The notes under the pieces were generated by a model. The model saw only the letters and a list, made by a program, of their open reading frames with translations. It was not told where the DNA came from and searched no databases. The position numbers and the translations under genes were made by a program. From a virus (Duplodnaviria; Heunggongvirae; Uroviricota; Caudoviricetes): 46,639 nt of DNA. Shown one piece after another: positions 35,377 to 46,639 of this stretch (within the stretch, counting starts at the first letter, position 1; the number at the start of each line of letters is the position of its first letter). The DNA lies in the IMG/VR virus record IMGVR_UViG_2529293141_000012; one strand, 5' to 3'.

Positions 35377-38300
35377 ATGGGTAAAGGCAGCAGTAAGGGG
35401 CATACCCCGCGCGAAGCGAAGGACAACCTGAAGTCCACGCAGTTGCTGAGTGTGATCGATGCCATCAGCGAAGGGCCGGTTGAAGGTCCGGTGGAGGGAT
35501 TAAAAAGTGTGCTGCTGAACAGTACGCCGGTGCTGGACACTGAGGGGAATACCAACATCTCCGGCGTCACGGTGGTGTTCCGGGCCGGTGAGCAGGAGCA
35601 GACACCGCCGGAGGGATTTGAATCCTCCGGTTCCGAGACGGTGCTGGGTACGGAAGTGAAATACGACACGCCGATCACCCGGACCATCACGTCGGCAAAC
35701 ATTGACCGACTGCGTTTTACCTTCGGCGTGCAGGCACTGGTGGAAACCACCTCAAAGGGGGATCGGAATCCGTCGGAAGTCCGCCTGCTGGTTCAGATAC
35801 AACGTAACGGTGGCTGGGTGACGGAAAAAGACATCACCATTAAGGGCAAAACCACCTCGCAGTATCTGGCCTCGGTGGTGGTGGATAACCTGCCGCCGCG
35901 CCCGTTTAATATCCGGATGCGCAGAATGACGCCGGACAGCACCACAGACCAGCTGCAGAACAAAACGCTCTGGTCGTCATACACCGAAATCATCGATGTG
36001 AAACAGTGCTACCCGAACACGGCACTGGTCGGCGTGCAGGTGGATTCGGAGCAGTTCGGCAGCCAGCAGGTGAGCCGTAATTATCATCTTCGCGGGCGCA
36101 TTCTGCAGGTGCCGTCGAATTATAACCCGCAGACGCGGCAATACAGCGGTATCTGGGACGGAACGTTAAAACCGGCATACAGCAACAACATGGCCTGGTG
36201 TCTGTGGGATATGCTGACCCACCCGCGCTACGGCATGGGAAAACGTCTTGGTGCGGCAGATGTGGATAAATGGGCGCTGTATGTCATCGGCCAGTACTGC
36301 GACCAGTCAGTGCCGGACGGCTTTGGTGGCACGGAGCCGCGCATCACCTGTAATGCGTACCTGACCACACAGCGTAAAGCGTGGGATGTGCTCAGTGATT
36401 TTTGCTCGGCGATGCGCTGTATGCCGGTATGGAACGGGCAGACGCTGACGTTCGTGCAGGACAGACCGTCGGATAAGGTGTGGACCTATAACCGCAGTAA
36501 TGTGGTGATGCCGGATGATGGTGCGCCATTCCGCTACAGCTTCAGCGCCCTGAAAGACCGCCATAATGCCGTTGAGGTGAACTGGATTGACCCGAACAAC
36601 GGCTGGGAGACGGCAACAGAGCTCGTGGAGGACACGCAGGCCATTGCCCGTTACGGTCGTAATGTCACGAAGATGGATGCCTTTGGCTGTACCAGCCGGG
36701 GGCAGGCGCACCGCGCCGGGCTGTGGCTGATTAAAACGGAACTGCTGGAAACGCAGACCGTGGACTTCAGCGTGGGTGCAGAAGGGCTTCGCCATGTACC
36801 GGGCGATGTCATTGAAATCTGTGATGATGACTATGCCGGTATCAGCACCGGCGGGCGCGTGCTGGCGGTGAACAGCCAGACCCGGACGCTGACGCTCGAC
36901 CGTGAAATCACGCTGCCATCTTCCGGCACCACGCTGATAAGCCTGGTTGACGGGCAGGGGAATCCGGTGAGCGTGGAGGTCCAGTCCGTCACTGACGGCG
37001 TGAAGGTGAAAGTGAGCCGTGTTCCTGACGGCGTTGCCGAATACAGCGTGTGGGGACTGAAGCTGCCGACGCTGCGCCAGCGCCTGTTCCGCTGCGTGAG
37101 TATCCGTGAGAACGACGACGGCACGTATGCCATCACCGCCGTGCAGCATGTACCTGAAAAAGAGGCCATCGTGGATAACGGGGCGCACTTTGACGGCGAC
37201 CAGAGCGGCACGGTGAATGGTGTCACGCCGCCCGCGGTGCAGCACCTGACCGCCGAAGTCACCGCAGACAGCGGGGAATATCAGGTGCTGGCGCGCTGGG
37301 ACACGCCGAAGGTGGTGAAGGGCGTGAGCTTCCTGCTCCGTCTGACCGTAACAGCGGATGACGGCAGTGAGCGGCTGGTCAGCACGGCCCGGACGACGGA
37401 AACCACATACCGCTTCACGCAGCTGGCGCTGGGGAACTACAGGCTGACAGTCCGGGCGGTAAATGCGTGGGGGCAGCAGGGCGATCCGGCGTCGGTATCG
37501 TTCCGGATTGCCGCACCGGCAGCGCCGTCACGGATTGAGCTGACGCCGGGCTATTTTCAGATAACCGCCACGCCGCATCTTGCGGTTTATGACCCGACGG
37601 TACAGTTTGAGTTCTGGTTCTCGGAAAAGCGGATTACCGATATCAGGCAGGTTGAAACCACAGCCCGCTATCTTGGTACGGCGCTGTACTGGATAGCCGC
37701 CAGTATCAATATCAAACCGGGCCATGATTATTATTTTTACGTTCGCAGTGTGAACACCGTTGGCAAATCGGCATTCGTGGAGGCTGTTGGTCAGCCGAGT
37801 GATGACGCATCCGGCTATCTGGATTTTTTCAAAGGCGAGATAGGGAAAACCCATCTGGCTCAGGAGCTGTGGACGCAGATTGATAACGGTCAGCTTGCGC
37901 CTGACCTGGCTGAAATCAGGACATCCATTACGGATGTCAGCAATGAAATCACACAGACCGTCAATAAGAAACTGGAAGACCAGAGTGCAGCGATCCAGCA
38001 GATACAGAAGGTTCAGGTTGATACAAATAATAATCTGAACAGCATGTGGGCTGTGAAGCTGCAGCAGATGCAGGATGGACGCCTTTATATTGCGGGTATC
38101 GGTGCCGGTATTGAGAACACCCCTGACGGCATGCAGAGTCAGGTGCTGCTGGCGGCGGACAGGATTGCGATGGTTAATCCTGCGAATGGCAACACAAAAC
38201 CGATGTTTGTTGGTCAGGGCGATCAGATATTCATGAACGACGTGTTCCTGAAACGCCTGACGGCCCCCACCATTACCAGCGGTGGAAATCCACCGGCATT

Positions 38301-38874
38301 TTCCCTGACACCGGACGGAAAGCTGACCGCTAAAAATGCGGATATCAGTGGCAGTGTGAATGCGAACGCCGGGACGCTCAACAATGTCACGGTAAATGAA
38401 AACTGTACGATTAAGGGCATGCTGGAGGCGACTCAGGTCAGAGGTGACTTCGTTAAAGCTGTATCCAAATCATTCCCGAAACAGGCTGGTACGTGGGGTA
38501 ACACGGAAACACCAAACGGGACGGTTACAGTCACCATAAGCGATGATCATAACTTTGACCGTCAAATCATTATTCCGCCCATTATCTTTAACGGAATAGC
38601 GTATAGCGATCCGGGAAGTGGTAATAACCCGGGAGGTACAAGATACACGGGTTATGGTTTTGAAGTTCGCAAAAACGGTGTATTAATCGCATCCAGAGAA
38701 ACTAAAGGGGCTATTCCCGGTAGCTACAGTGCGGTTATTGATATGCCGAGTGGCAGGGGAAGCGTCACTCTGGAGTTTAAGGTTTTCCATAAAGGCAATC
38801 AGTGGGCAGGTAATATCACCGACTGTACGGTGATTGTGACCAAAAAAGCCGCTTCCGGCATCAGTATTCGTTGA
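35377..38874 (+). CDS. J: Central tail fibre / host-specificity protein J
   Basis: 1165 aa; about 1000 N-terminal residues lambda-like, C-terminal receptor-binding part divergent. Confidence 0.95.
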
Positions 38875-38895
38875 AATTGTTATAACCCATATAAG

Positions 38896-38920
38896 GGCAC
38901 CAGAAATGGTGCCTTTTTTA
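38896..38920 (+). terminator. Intrinsic terminator after J
   Basis: GGCACC-AGAAA-TGGTGCC followed by TTTTTTA. Confidence 0.5.
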
Positions 38921-38943
38921 TTGCAGAAAAGCGAGAGGTAATT

Positions 38944-39543
38944 ATGCGTAAACTTTATGCCGCCATTTTGTCCGCAGCCATTTGTCTGGCCGTATCCGGT
39001 GCGCCTGCATGGGCATCTGAACATCAGTCCACGCTGAGCGCGGGGTATCTTCATGCCTTGACGAACGTTCCCGGCAGCGATGATCTTAACGGGATTAACG
39101 TGAAATACCGTTATGAGTTTACGGACACACTGGGGCTGGTGACGTCATTCAGCTATGCAGGAGACAAGAATCGCCAGCTGACCCGTTACAGCGATACCCG
39201 CTGGCATGAAGATTCAGTGCGTAACCGCTGGTTCAGCGTGATGGCGGGGCCGTCTGTGCGCGTGAATGAATGGTTCAGCGCGTATGCGATGGCGGGTATG
39301 GCTTACAGCCGTGTGTCGACTTTCTCCGGGGATTATCTCCGCGTAACTGACAACAAGGGGAAAACGCACGACGTGCTGACCGGAAGTGATGACGGTCGCC
39401 ACAGCAACACGTCTCTGGCGTGGGGGGCTGGCGTGCAGTTTAACCCGACCGAATCCGTGGCCGTTGACGTCGCTTATGAAGGCTCCGGCAGCGGTGACTG
39501 GCGTACCAACAGTTTCATCGTGGGTGTCGGTTATAAATTCTGA
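38944..39543 (+). CDS. lom: Outer-membrane protein Lom (Ail/OmpX family)
   Basis: 199 aa with signal peptide, beta-barrel pattern and C-terminal …VGVGYKF; matches lambda Lom. Confidence 0.9.
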   Translation: MRKLYAAILSAAICLAVSGAPAWASEHQSTLSAGYLHALTNVPGSDDLNGINVKYRYEFTDTLGLVTSFSYAGDKNRQLTRYSDTRWHEDSVRNRWFSVMAGPSVRVNEWFSAYAMAGMAYSRVSTFSGDYLRVTDNKGKTHDVLTGSDDGRHSNTSLAWGAGVQFNPTESVAVDVAYEGSGSGDWRTNSFIVGVGYKF

Positions 39544-39597: not shown

Positions 39598-39607
39598 TGG
39601 GGTGAAT

Positions 39608-42600
39608 ATGGCAGTAAAGATTTCAGGTGTACTGAAAGACGGCACAGGAAAACCGGTACAGAACTGCACAATCCAGCTGAAAGCAAAACGTAACAGCACC
39701 ACGGTGGTGGTGAACACGCTGGCCTCAGAAAATCCGGATGAAGCCGGGCGTTACAGCATGGACGTTGAGTACGGTCAGTACAGCGTTATTCTGTTGGTGG
39801 AGGGATTCCCGCCGTCACATGCCGGGACCATCACCGTGTATGAAGATTCTCAACCCGGTACGCTGAATGATTTTCTCGGTGCCATGACGGAGGATGATGC
39901 CCGTCCGGAGGCACTGCGCCGCTTTGAACTGATGGTGGAAGAGGTGGCGCGTAACGCGTCCGCAGTGGCGCAGAACACAGCAGCCGCGAAGAAGTCAGCC
40001 AGCGATGCCAGCACATCAGCCCGTGAGGCGGCAACCCATGCGACTGATGCTGCAGGCTCAGCACGTGCAGCCAGCACATCAGCCGGGCAGGCCGCGACGT
40101 CGGCTCAGTCAGCGTCTTCCAGCGCAGGAACGGCATCAACAAAGGCTACTGAAGCATCAAAAAGTGCTGCCGCTGCAGAGTCCTCAAAAAGCGCGGCAGC
40201 TACCAGTGCCAGTGCCGCGAAAACGTCAGAAACGAATGCGGCAGCGTCACAAAAATCTGCAGCCACTTCTGCATCCACCGCGACCACGAAAGCGTCAGAA
40301 GCTGCCACCTCAGCCCGGGATGCGGCGGCCTCAAAAGAGGCAGCGAAATCATCAGAAACGAGCGCAGCCTCGAGCGCCAGCAGCGCAGCTTCCTCGGCAA
40401 CGGCGGCAGGAAATTCCGCGAAGGCGGCAAAGACGTCCGAGACGAACGCCAGGTCTTCTGAAACGGCAGCGGGACAGAGTGCCTCAGCTGCGGCAGGCTC
40501 AAAAACAGCGGCTGCATCATCTGCCAGTGCCGCGTCAACAAGTGCCGGGCAGGCCTCAGCCAGTGCCACCGCTGCCGGAAAGTCGGCAGAAAGTGCTGCA
40601 TCGTCTGCTTCAACAGCCACAACGAATGCTGGCGAAGCCGCTGTACAGGCCAGCGCAGCAGCGAGGTCAGCTTCCGCAGCGAAGACATCCGAGACGAACG
40701 CGAAAGCGTCGGAAACCAGCGCAGAATCCTCAAAAACGGCTGCCGCATCATCCGCCAGTTCGGCGGCGTCATCGGCATCATCGGCGTCTGCTTCAAAAGA
40801 TGAGGCGACCAGACAGGCGTCAGCAGCGAAGGGCAGCGCCACGACGGCATCCACAAAGGCGACAGAGGCTGCTGGCAGTGCGACAGCGGCAGCACAGAGC
40901 AAAAGTACGGCAGAATCCGCAGCAACGCGCGCTGAGACAGCGGCAAAACGGGCAGAGGATATTGCATCCGCCGTGGCGCTTGAGGATGCGAGCACGACGA
41001 AAAAGGGGATAGTACAGCTCAGCAGTGCGACCAACAGCACTTCCGAGTCACTGGCGGCAACGCCAAAGGCAGTAAAAGCAGCCTATGACAATGCAGAGAA
41101 ACGTCTGCAGAAAGACCAGAACGGCGCTGATATACCCGATAAGGTACGCTTCCTGAACAACATTAACGCGGTCAGTAAAACAGACTTTGCTGATAAGCGT
41201 GGTATGCGTTATGTGCGGGTTAACGCTCCTGCAGGTGCAACATCTGGAAAATATTACCCTGTTGTTGTTATGCGTTCTGCTGGCTCAGTAAGCGAACTGG
41301 CATCAAGGGTCATTATCACCACGGCAACGCGAACCGCAGGCGATCCGATGAATAACTGCGAGTTTAACGGATTTGTTATGCCTGGTGGCTGGACTGACAG
41401 GGGGCGTTATGCTTATGGAATGTTCTGGCAATATCAAAACAATGAACGAGCCATCCACTCAATAATGATGAGTAATAAGGGCGATGATTTGCGCTCTGTG
41501 TTCTATGTTGATGGCGCTGCTTTCCCTGTTTTTGCGTTCATCGAAGATGGCCTGTCAATATCCGCACCTGGTGCTGATCTCGTTGTTAATGATACGACCT
41601 ATAAGTTTGGGGCAACAAATCCAGCGACTGAATGTATCGCGGCGGACGTTATCCTTGATTTTAAGAGTGGGCGTGGTTTTTATGAGTCCCATTCGTTAAT
41701 CGTTAACGATAACTTGTCGTGCAAAAAACTTTTTGCCACAGACGAAATTGTAGCGCGTGGTGGTAATCAGATTCGAATGATAGGTGGGGAGTATGGTGCA
41801 TTATGGCGTAATGATGGCGCTAAAACTTACCTGCTGCTTACCAATCAAGGTGATGTTTATGGTGGATGGAATACATTAAGACCGTTTGTTATTGATAACG
41901 CAACCGGCGAACTGGTTATTGGAACCAAACTGTCTGCAAGTCTGAACGGTAACGCATTGACAGCAACAAAGCTGCAAACGCCAAGACTGGTTTCTGGTGT
42001 TGAGTTTGATGGTTCCAGAGATATTACTTTAACCGCCGCGCATGTGGCTGCTTTTGCCAGAAGGGCAACGGATACATATGCCGATGCGGATGGTGGCGTT
42101 CCCTGGAATGCCGAATCAGGCGCTTACAATGTCACCCGCTCTGGCGACACCTATATTCTGGTTAACTTCTATACCGGAGTCGGAAGTTGCCGGACCCTGC
42201 AGATGAAGGCGCATTACAGAAATGGAGGTCTGTTCTACCGTTCCTCAAGAGATGGCTATGGTTTTGAGGAAGACTGGGCAGAAGTTTATACCTCGAAAAA
42301 TCTTCCACCAGAAAGCTACCCAGTCGGCGCACCAATCCCGTGGCCATCAGATACCGTTCCGTCTGGTTATGCCCTGATGCAGGGGCAGACTTTTGACAAA
42401 TCTGCATACCCGAAACTTGCAGCCGCTTATCCGTCAGGCGTGATCCCTGATATGCGTGGCTGGACGATTAAGGGCAAACCTGCCAGTGGTCGCGCCGTAT
42501 TGTCTCAGGAACAGGACGGCATTAAATCGCACACCCACAGCGCCAGCGCATCCAGTACGGATTTGGGGACGAAAACCACATCGTCGTTTGATTACGGAAC

Positions 42601-43009
42601 CAAATCCACGAATAACACCGGGGCGCATACCCATAGTATTAGCGGGACCGCAAATAGTGCCGGCGCGCACCAACACAAGAGTTCCGGTGCATTTGGTGGC
42701 ACGAACACGAGCATTTTCCCTAATGGTTATACCGCGATTTCAAATCCAAGCGCGGGGATTATGAGCACAACAAGCGGTAGTGGCCAGACTCGTAATGCAG
42801 GGAAGACATCATCAGATGGTGCTCATACCCACTCGCTGTCCGGCACTGCTGCAATCGCAGGCGCACATGCACATACTGTCGGTATTGGTGCTCATACGCA
42901 CTCCGTTGCGATTGGCTCACATGGACACACCATCACCGTTAACGCTGCGGGTAACGCGGAAAACACCGTCAAAAACATCGCATTTAACTATATTGTGAGG
43001 CTTGCATAA
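39608..43009 (+). CDS. stf: Side tail fibre protein Stf (long form with expanded Ala/Ser/Thr-rich shaft)
   Basis: [26 protein letters not shown]… N-terminus and …[30 protein letters not shown]-terminus match lambda Stf; ATG at 39608 (the track begins at GTG 39602). Confidence 0.9.
39990..41000 (+). repeat. Imperfect tandem repeats inside stf encoding Ala/Ser/Thr-rich segments (KTSETNA motif repeated at least four times)
   Basis: Recurring AAGACGTCCGAGACGAACGCC-type units; generates long spurious ORFs in other frames on both strands. Confidence 0.7.
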
Positions 43010-44394: not shown

Positions 44395-44670
44395 GTGGCT
44401 TCTGTTTCTATCAGCTGTCCCTCCTGTTCAGCTACTGACGGGGTGGTGCGTAACGGCAAAAGCACCGCCGGACATCAGCGCTATCTCTGCTCTCACTGCC
44501 GTAAAACATGGCAACTGCAGTTCACTTACACCGCTTCTCAACCCGGTACGCACCAGAAAATCATTGATATGGCCATGAATGGCGTTGGATGCCGGGCAAC
44601 TGCACGCATTATGGGCGTTGGCCTCAACACGATTTTACGTCACTTAAAAAACTCAGGCCGCAGTCGGTAA
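44395..44670 (+). CDS. insA: IS1 InsA
   Basis: 91 aa, [43 protein letters not shown]…. Confidence 0.95.
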
Positions 44671-45092
44671 CCTCGCGCATACAGCCGGGCAGTGACGTCA
44701 TCGTCTGCGCGGAAATGGACGAACAGTGGGGCTATGTCGGGGCTAAATCGCGCCAGCGCTGGCTGTTTTACGCGTATGACAGTCTCCGGAAGACGGTTGT
44801 TGCGCACGTATTCGGTGAACGCACTATGGCGACGCTGGGGCGTCTTATGAGCCTGCTGTCACCCTTTGACGTGGTGATATGGATGACGGATGGCTGGCCG
44901 CTGTATGAATCCCGCCTGAAGGGAAAGCTGCACGTAATCAGCAAGCGATATACGCAGCGAATTGAGCGGCATAACCTGAATCTGAGGCAGCACCTGGCAC
45001 GGCTGGGACGGAAGTCGCTGTCGTTCTCAAAATCGGTGGAGCTGCATGACAAAGTCATCGGGCATTATCTGAACATAAAACACTATCAATAA
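44589..45092 (+). CDS. insB: IS1 InsB (expressed as the InsAB' transposase by frameshift)
   Basis: 167-aa ORF overlapping insA in the -1 frame. Confidence 0.9.
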
Positions 45093-45122
45093 GTTCGAGT
45101 CATTACCAATTGGGTGGATGAT

Positions 45123-45866
45123 ATGGCAACTACATGTTCAGTTATATTGATTTTGGAGTCCTTTGATGTTTATTTCGGAAAAGAGAGTGTGTTTCTGGAG
45201 AGAGGTTCATCTGTACTTGTCGACTCTAGCTCTAGAGATTTTTTCCTGACATATCCTGAAAGAGTGATAGTGGCGGATTTTGGCGCTGAGTTTATTAGTC
45301 GCTATTTGAAAGCTAATAACTTAAGGGATATTTCTGATTGTAGGGAATATCCATCTTATTTAAAAATAAACTTTGCTGACTTCAGTTTAATTAAAGGATT
45401 AATTAGTTGGGCTAATCACTGTGCTGAATACATAGAAATTTTTGATGAGTCTATTGCTTTTACATGTCTCTCTGCATTTTCTTCTGAAAAACAATTTGGA
45501 GTATTTCTGTTTGGATGTTTGAAAAGCACTGGGGCTAAAGTTAAAACGATTATTCATACGGATTTATCTGCACCATGGCGTCTTAAGGATATATCATCAA
45601 GATTATATCTCAGCGAAAGTTTACTAAAGATGAAATTGAAAGAAGAGGGGGTATCATTCAGTAAGATCATACTTGATGAGAGGATGCAAATGGCTGAATA
45701 TTTACTCAGCACTCGTTGTTATCCTATTAGTAAAGTAGCTAAGGTCTGTGGTTATGCCAGTGTCTCATACTTTACTTATGTATTTAGACGTTATTTTGGT
45801 GTTTCTCCAAGTCAATACTCTCAGAGGAGTTCAGAAAGTAAAATTCTTACTCACCAGGGAATCTGA
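45123..45866 (+). CDS. AraC-family transcriptional regulator, AppY/EnvY-like
   Basis: C-terminal AraC HTH (ISKVAKVCGYASVSYFTYVFRRYFGVSPSQY); AT-rich gene; first ATG at 45123, only about 15 bp from the IS1 end (the track begins at GTG 45114). Confidence 0.8.
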   Translation: MATTCSVILILESFDVYFGKESVFLERGSSVLVDSSSRDFFLTYPERVIVADFGAEFISRYLKANNLRDISDCREYPSYLKINFADFSLIKGLISWANHCAEYIEIFDESIAFTCLSAFSSEKQFGVFLFGCLKSTGAKVKTIIHTDLSAPWRLKDISSRLYLSESLLKMKLKEEGVSFSKIILDERMQMAEYLLSTRCYPISKVAKVCGYASVSYFTYVFRRYFGVSPSQYSQRSSESKILTHQGI

Positions 45867-45907: not shown

Positions 45908-46360
45908 TTAAGTTAACGTTACCCGCTGACGTCGATATTCTCGCGGAGAGCGATAACCCAGCGCACTGTGCGGATGGTTTTCATTGTAATGTTCGATCGC
46001 CACTGCAAGATTATGCAATGCCGTTCTTACATTCGGTTTCGGCATGAACGCGATGTAGTCTTCCTTCATCGTTTTCACGAACCTTTCTGCCATTCCATTA
46101 CTCTGAGGACTGCTGATTGCCGTTGTGCAGGGCTCCAGATTCAACTCTCTGGCGAACTGCCGTGTTTCATGCGCTCTATACGCTGAACCGTTATCTGTCA
46201 GCCACTGGATGGACTGTTCCGGTACTTTATCGCCAAAGCGTTTTTCTATCGCTCCTAACATAACATCCTGCACTGTCGCTTTATCGTAACCTCCCGTGCT
46301 TGCGGCCCAGTCTATGGCTTCACGATCGCAACAGTCCAGGGCGAACGTAACACGCAGTTT
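45908..46360 (-). pseudogene. IS3-family (IS2-like) transposase OrfB, C-terminal fragment interrupted by another IS
   Basis: rve integrase-core C-terminus …[17 protein letters not shown]; reading frame continues upstream to 46360 without a start and is cut by the end of a second element. Confidence 0.7.
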
Positions 46361-46639
46361 TGAATCGCCACGGGTTTAACAGACACCTCAGAGTCATTTA
46401 AGATGGCTTAAAGAGAGGTGCCCATGAGCGGTAAGCGTTATCCCGAAGAGTTTAAAACTGAAGCAGTCAAACAGGTTATTGATCGCGGTTATTCTGTTGC
46501 CAGCGTTGCAACACGTCTCGATATCACCACCCACAGCCTTTATGCCTGGATAAAGAAGTACGGTCCGGATTACTCCACTTTTTCATCAAGCCAATCCGCC
46601 CACCACTGCATCATTTCTCTGCGCTTATCGAGATACTGA
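46361..46639 (+). mobile_element. Left end of an IS3-family element (continues beyond the window)
   Basis: TGA…-type terminal sequence TGAATCGCCACGGGTTTAACAGACAC followed by OrfA; oriented opposite to the truncated OrfB. Confidence 0.55.
46418..46639 (+). CDS. IS3-family transposase OrfA (HTH)
   Basis: MPMSGKRYPEEFKTEAVKQVIDRGYSVASVATRLDITTHSLYAWIKKY… typical OrfA HTH. Confidence 0.7.
   Translation: MPMSGKRYPEEFKTEAVKQVIDRGYSVASVATRLDITTHSLYAWIKKYGPDYSTFSSSQSAHHCIISLRLSRY

Follow-up and report, generated by a model that had tools for sequence, protein, structure and literature searches.

A lambda-like tail-tip protein J with a receptor-binding domain of the phage 434 class

The J gene and its prophage surroundings

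The window analysed here is the whole 46,639-nucleotide stretch of a Caudoviricetes virus record (IMGVR_UViG_2529293141_000012). The sole long open reading frame of the region under study (35377..38874, plus strand) is intact and encodes the tail-tip, or central tail fibre, protein J, with 1,165 residues ending in ...KAASGISIR. Upstream lie reading frames of 109, 232, 247 and 213 residues at the positions of M, L, K and I, and downstream lie Lom, Stf and Tfa, so that the gene order around J matches that of lambda, 434 and Ayreon and the gene stands at the position of a lambda-type J. Six Pfam models match along the protein in the expected order, all above their cut-offs (PF24801, PF13550, PF24421, PF24489, PF09327 and PF12421), giving the full domain order of a lambda-type tail-tip protein: hub/FNIII-A, Phage-tail_3, two Ig/FNIII domains, tail-tip fibre and C-terminal receptor-binding domain. 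The PF09327 'tail tip fibre' model covers residues 872–1000. Minus-strand reading frames at 38683–39054 and 38223–38420 run antisense within J and lom and were taken as spurious.

Aligned with lambda J (NC_001416, 15505–18903; 1,132 residues), the protein is 82% identical overall, and the identity is distributed very unevenly. Residues 1–805, comprising the hub domains and two FNIII/Ig domains (35377..37791, plus strand), are 98.1% identical to lambda J without indels, and the corresponding DNA is 89–100% identical in 100-nt segments. A central divergent block follows (residues 806–946; 37792..38214, plus strand), which is 50.4% identical and carries 28 additional residues. Identity returns to 96.3%, again without indels, in the lower central straight fibre (residues 947–1000; 38215..38376, plus strand) and falls to 42.9%, with gaps on both sides, in the last 165 residues, the receptor-binding domain (residues 1001–1165 and the stop codon; 38377..38874, plus strand); a tblastn local alignment of the same residues gives 38.8%. 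This drop from 98% to about 40% inside one open reading frame is far beyond chance and, judged by the alignments, is a mosaic boundary and not drift.

An earlier note on this DNA, made from the letters alone, had described J as lambda-like over roughly its first 1,000 residues, which holds for residues 1–805 and 947–1000 but not for the central block between them. It had placed a central divergence at about 37800–38100; that divergence is real, although it extends to about 38215. The divergent C-terminus that it had placed at 38400–38874 lies inside the true divergent block, and only its start needs moving, the onset being about 25–35 nt earlier; the final residues that it quoted are indeed those of the J reading frame. 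The comparison with lambda J that it had proposed as a check thus bears out its central claim: the C-terminus is not lambda-identical, with about 39–43% identity.

Beyond J and lom, the side tail fibre gene stf (39602–43009, plus strand) is intact and encodes 1,135 residues, whereas laboratory lambda has a frameshifted stf; the equivalent gene of related genomes is annotated stfR by RefSeq. Its product has a prophage tail-fibre N-terminal domain, a roughly 350-residue low-complexity stretch rich in Ala, Ser and Thr, and Gp34_trimer and Collar domains, and its C-terminal end is His-rich with motifs of the GAHTHS/GAHAHT type. A tandem-repeat scan detected no DNA tandem repeats in the Ala/Ser-rich part of the gene. 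The ATG start codon of tfa, the tail fibre assembly chaperone gene (Caudo_TAP, PF02413; 43009–43590, plus strand), and the stop codon of stf overlap by one base, the last of stf. About 0.8 kb further downstream lies an IS1 element (44395–45092, plus strand) with insA-like and insB-like reading frames, which is annotated as an IS1A-family transposase in matching genomes, and its position is the apparent right end of the prophage. It is followed by a gene for an AraC-family regulator (45114–45866, plus strand) with HTH_AraC/HTH_18 at the C-terminus and by putative IS3-family transposase fragments on both strands (45908–46639), judged as such from sequence. From the AraC-family regulator onward, the DNA is probably chromosomal or part of an island, outside the prophage. 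Seventy-four complete genomes also have the gene order J-lom-stf-tfa-IS1-AraC-like gene, the best of them at 98.4% identity.

Fold and class of the C-terminal domain

The C-terminal block was assigned by three kinds of comparison. Residues 1029–1164 match PF12421 (Ig_GpJ_C; 'Tip attachment protein J, C-terminal receptor binding domain') with E = 9.6e-26 and 90.9 bits against a curated cut-off of 26.2 bits, over profile positions 1–134 of 135. A sequence search of the PDB returned the C-terminal fragment of the engineered A8 gpJ (9wca, E = 4e-107) and those of lambda gpJ (8xcj and 8iyk, E about 1e-97, best 3e-98), all aligned to the last residue. An AlphaFold2 model of residues 985–1165, computed as a monomer from a shallow alignment of 26 homologous sequences, is all-beta (mean pLDDT 82.4, pTM 0.71) and adopts the beta-sandwich fold of the solved lambda gpJ receptor-binding domain. 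The top four Foldseek matches of this model in the PDB are 8xck (lambda gpJ, closed), 8xcj (lambda gpJ, open with LamB), 9wca (A8 gpJ, closed) and 9wcb (A8 gpJ, open with OmpC), with E about 1e-15 and TM about 0.7, and subsequent matches are far weaker. Because the Pfam, PDB sequence and Foldseek matches agree, we assign the block to the receptor-binding end of J, with a known fold as modelled. The earlier note's reading of the divergent C-terminus as a receptor-binding region is borne out by the PF12421 match and by a predicted fold like that of the lambda and A8 gpJ receptor-binding ends.

The class of this domain is sharply delimited. When 50,697 phage records were searched by tblastn with the last 165 residues, 74 records matched with at least 90% identity and all the rest fell below 60%. 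Identity at the protein level is complete in Ayreon, several Stx2c and Stx1a converting phages and PhiR49_1, and it is 98.8% in ev099, 95.2% in mEp460, 94.5% in 434 and 93.9% in Stx2a_WGPS6; phage 21 reaches 43.7% and lambda 38.8%. When the window's domain is aligned with single representatives of ten other classes, among them lambda, these are 42–56% identical to it. Against 434 J, only nine of the 165 residues differ (V1006I, E1008Q, S1032A, Q1036K, A1037V, N1047D, S1077D, R1127G and W1143R), there are no indels and all loop lengths are equal, which places the domain in the 434 class. Membership in the LamB-binding lambda class would show as close identity to lambda J at about 970–1132, including loops L1–L4; the observed identity is 38.8–42.9%, and each of the four variable segments contains indels.

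Over the 495 nt of the domain, 41 nucleotides differ between the window and 434, with dS 0.33, dN 0.028 and dN/dS 0.085. A ratio this low indicates strong purifying selection on a conserved function.

The ten-class alignment also locates the variation within the domain. All indels and most substitutions fall within four segments, at about residues 1036–1047, 1073–1090, 1105–1116 and 1137–1148, and the classes conserve the motifs DDHxFDRQ, NG and DMPxGxG as well as the final strand (KKxxxGISI). The four variable segments are loops or strand ends in the AlphaFold2 model, and the first and second are longest in the 434 class. In the lambda complex, four bottom loops, L1–L4, insert into LamB (PMC11101478). 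The window's variable segments fit these receptor-contact loops, to which we provisionally assign them in order. Under this assignment, the presumed contact loops or their immediate flanks hold five or six of the nine differences from 434: Q1036K, A1037V and N1047D (L1), S1077D (L2) and W1143R (L4).

The 434-class domain is common. It is found in 2,114 of 5,426 complete E. coli genomes (39%), at 2,862 places, often in several copies and in up to seven per genome. Lambda's own domain occurs in 98 of the 5,426, always with at least 99% identity, and laboratory strains such as DE3 lysogens top the list of matches. The LamB-binding domain of lambda is thus a rare allele in sequenced E. coli, and the 434 class is the common one. 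The divergent block is a common allele of the J receptor-binding domain that has long been known, and it represents no new biology. Three database proteins with this domain (P0027, P0102 and P0056) look chimeric or internally duplicated: in P0102 the receptor domain directly follows the J N-terminus, and P0056 has a duplicated loop segment. They probably stem from errors of assembly or gene calling, or from prophage remnants with deletions. Brenes & Laub 2025, which stands in the reference list of the SNIPE paper, may be the source of the PV3405xx phages.

Many E. coli lambdoid prophages are defective, and IS1 and IS3-family fragments follow this one, so we considered whether the C-terminus is the decayed, non-functional remnant of a defective prophage, its divergence from lambda having no functional meaning. 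The J reading frame is, however, intact and equal in length to the J of plaque-forming Ayreon, the domain is identical in amino acid sequence to that of several isolated phages, and the propagated phages mEp332, ev099 and PhiR34_1 are about 97% identical to the window over its 24-kb structural region. Decay is therefore a very improbable account of the divergence.

Mosaic joints and shaft alleles

The joints within J were mapped by sliding 60-nt identity and DNA alignment and fall at about 37790, 38215 and 38366. The gene is lambda-like up to about 37790, and between there and 38215 it resembles Ayreon and phage 21. The resemblance to lambda returns at 38240–38365, where positions 38300–38359 are 100% identical to lambda and 83% identical to Ayreon. 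At about 38366 begins a stretch that is 98–100% Ayreon-like and 87–100% 434-like; it covers the rest of J with its stop codon and the terminator and reaches into lom. By these comparisons, J is a mosaic with joints in conserved stretches, which is ordinary lambdoid mosaicism.

The tract does not end with J. A hairpin resembling an intrinsic terminator was found by a terminator scan at 38893..38925 (plus strand); it is identical in 434 and Ayreon, where it is annotated as a terminator. The adjoining lom gene (38944..39543, plus strand) encodes an Ail/Lom outer-membrane protein (PF06316, E = 1.9e-119) of the 434-type allele, with 96% identity to 434 Lom, 97% to Ayreon Lom and 45% to lambda Lom. 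Because Lom is 434/Ayreon-like and not lambda-like, a single 434-like tract carries the receptor domain together with the terminator and lom.

All J proteins are nearly invariant in the stretch that contains the 3′ joint, and the 434-class 3′ end was probably acquired by homologous recombination in this conserved lower central fibre. The gpJ chimeras of Brödel et al. were fused at lambda residue 964, inside the same conserved stretch (PMC11338833). The window offers a clean natural case of modules being exchanged at the very conserved junction chosen by engineers to retarget lambda particles.

The central block represents a second variable module. In lambda J, residues 809–861 form an alpha-helical shaft, below which lies a beta-prism 'central straight fibre', and both rearrange on receptor binding (PMC11101478). 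Residues 806–946 of the window's J correspond to the shaft together with the uppermost part of the central straight fibre, in a 'long' allele with 28 residues more than that of lambda. Its DNA is 95–100% identical to Ayreon, WGPS6 and phage 21 and 2–65% identical to lambda and 434, which have the short allele. The long allele occurs in 3,614 and the short allele in 2,649 of the 5,426 complete E. coli genomes. Lambda combines a short shaft with the lambda receptor-domain class, 434 a short shaft with the 434 class, phage 21 a long shaft with the 21 class, and the window and Ayreon a long shaft with the 434 class; in these phages, shaft allele and receptor-domain class assort independently.

A further conserved element lies at positions 38164–38259 (J residues 930–961), the counterpart of a 32-residue HepS-triggering peptide, lambda J 902–933; the peptide is conserved, and lambda F924 is kept as F952. 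The lambda peptide is reported to trigger the prophage-encoded abortive-infection nuclease HepS, with phenylalanine F924 being critical (PMC13043305). The window's J would be predicted to activate HepS.

Probable receptor and comparison with known systems

According to later accounts of the classical work (PMC3509688 and PMC11101478, restating Hantke 1978 and Fuerst and Bingham 1978), phage 434 infects by way of OmpC, and lambda with the tail-fibre gene (J) of 434 binds OmpC and not LamB. The earlier note had suggested an outer-membrane receptor other than that of lambda and had named J proteins of OmpC-specific lambdoid phages for comparison. In such an alignment, the last 165 residues are 94.5% identical to those of 434 J, and this figure, together with membership in the 434 class and 100% identity to Ayreon, supports at the sequence level a receptor other than LamB. 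We conclude that the window's J carries a 434-class receptor domain, probably recombined into a lambda-like J with a long shaft, and that OmpC, rather than LamB, is its most likely receptor. We hold this with good but not higher confidence because of the loop differences from 434, the lability of porin use in the family and the allele specificity of OmpC recognition.

That lability is documented in several members of the family. Phage 21 natively uses LamB, and one J mutation adds the use of OmpC; in both lambda and phage 21, single or few J mutations alter porin use (PMC11336670). Over the receptor-binding region, the A8 and 21 classes are 84% identical, yet A8 uses OmpC. The gpJ variant 1A2 is active on EDL933 OmpC and inactive on K-12 OmpC (PMC11338833). 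Related domain classes thus change porin with few changes, and receptor choice in this family is labile.

These observations raise the possibility that the domain belongs to the 434 class but that the specificity of the Ayreon subtype has shifted, to another porin (LamB or OmpF) or to certain OmpC alleles alone. The five or six of nine substitutions in or beside variable loop segments would fit such a shift, as would the altered porin use of lambda and phage 21 after one or a few J mutations and the different OmpC alleles that A8 and 1A2 accept. The dN/dS of 0.085 at a dS of 0.33 argues instead for conserved function, and every loop has the same length as in 434. Moreover, Ayreon, whose domain is identical, was isolated on a K-12 strain, and 434 uses E. 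coli OmpC in the classical work as restated in the accounts cited above. We therefore consider a shifted specificity unlikely and retain OmpC as the probable receptor.

K-12 strains are recorded as growth hosts both for Ayreon and for phi458, whose domain is near-identical (98.9% nucleotide identity to the window over the last 875 nt of J). The literature searched yielded no receptor data for Ayreon, phi458, mEp332, PhiR49_1 or the Stx2c phages. Three further OmpC-related comparisons were set aside. The OmpC-dependent phage phi330, whose closest genome is WGPS6 (domain 93.9% identical to the window's), was dropped as direct evidence because its own domain is stated to be just 35–40% identical to that of 434 and thus falls in a different class. 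A8 was rejected as a member of the window's class, since it matches the P0050 class, about 53% identical to the window, and so was 1A2, for which the DNA in the Nature supplement encodes a 'DSRAPERWPSG' class like P0111, about 52% identical.

By analogy with the lambda–LamB and A8–OmpC complexes, J would trimerize and present three beta-sandwich domains at the fibre tip, whose four variable bottom loops would dock on a trimeric porin, most probably OmpC. Docking would push the three domains apart and twist the straight fibre; the helical shaft would then flip, the tail tip would open and the DNA would be ejected. More tentatively, and with rather low confidence, the Ayreon-subtype loop residues 1036, 1037, 1047, 1077 and 1143 might confer a set of accepted OmpC alleles different from that of 434, or an extra porin, such that the subtypes would divide E. 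coli hosts by OmpC allele, and the long shaft might also alter the signal from receptor binding to tail opening. For annotation, the probable assignment to OmpC means that particles of this prophage would be expected to need OmpC and not LamB, which bears on predictions of host range, superinfection and transduction.

Among known systems, the J of the OmpC-binding phage 434 (UMO75286, OL657226) shares with the window a domain that is 94.5% identical and an identical downstream terminator and intergenic DNA; it differs in its total length of 1,137 residues with a short lambda-type shaft, against 1,165 residues with a long shaft in the window, and in the nine domain substitutions. Ayreon J (ATE85479, MF807953) has the same length of 1,165 residues and the same long shaft, and its domain is identical in protein sequence with four synonymous nucleotide differences. 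Ayreon differs from the window at 38240–38365, where the window is lambda-identical, as well as in the upstream tail genes and the side fibre. Lambda J (P03749; structures 8XCK, 8XCJ, 8XCI and 8XCG) shares domain order and fold with the window's J, but its domain is about 39–43% identical with indels in the four variable segments, its shaft is 28 residues shorter and its receptor is LamB. Phage 21 J has the long shaft in common with the window, whereas its domain is 43.7% identical and its native receptor is LamB. The engineered lambda gpJ chimeras A8 (PDB 9WCA/9WCB) and 1A2 share the fold and the principle, a foreign end joined in the last conserved stretch that moves the receptor from LamB to OmpC, although both belong to sequence classes other than that of the window.
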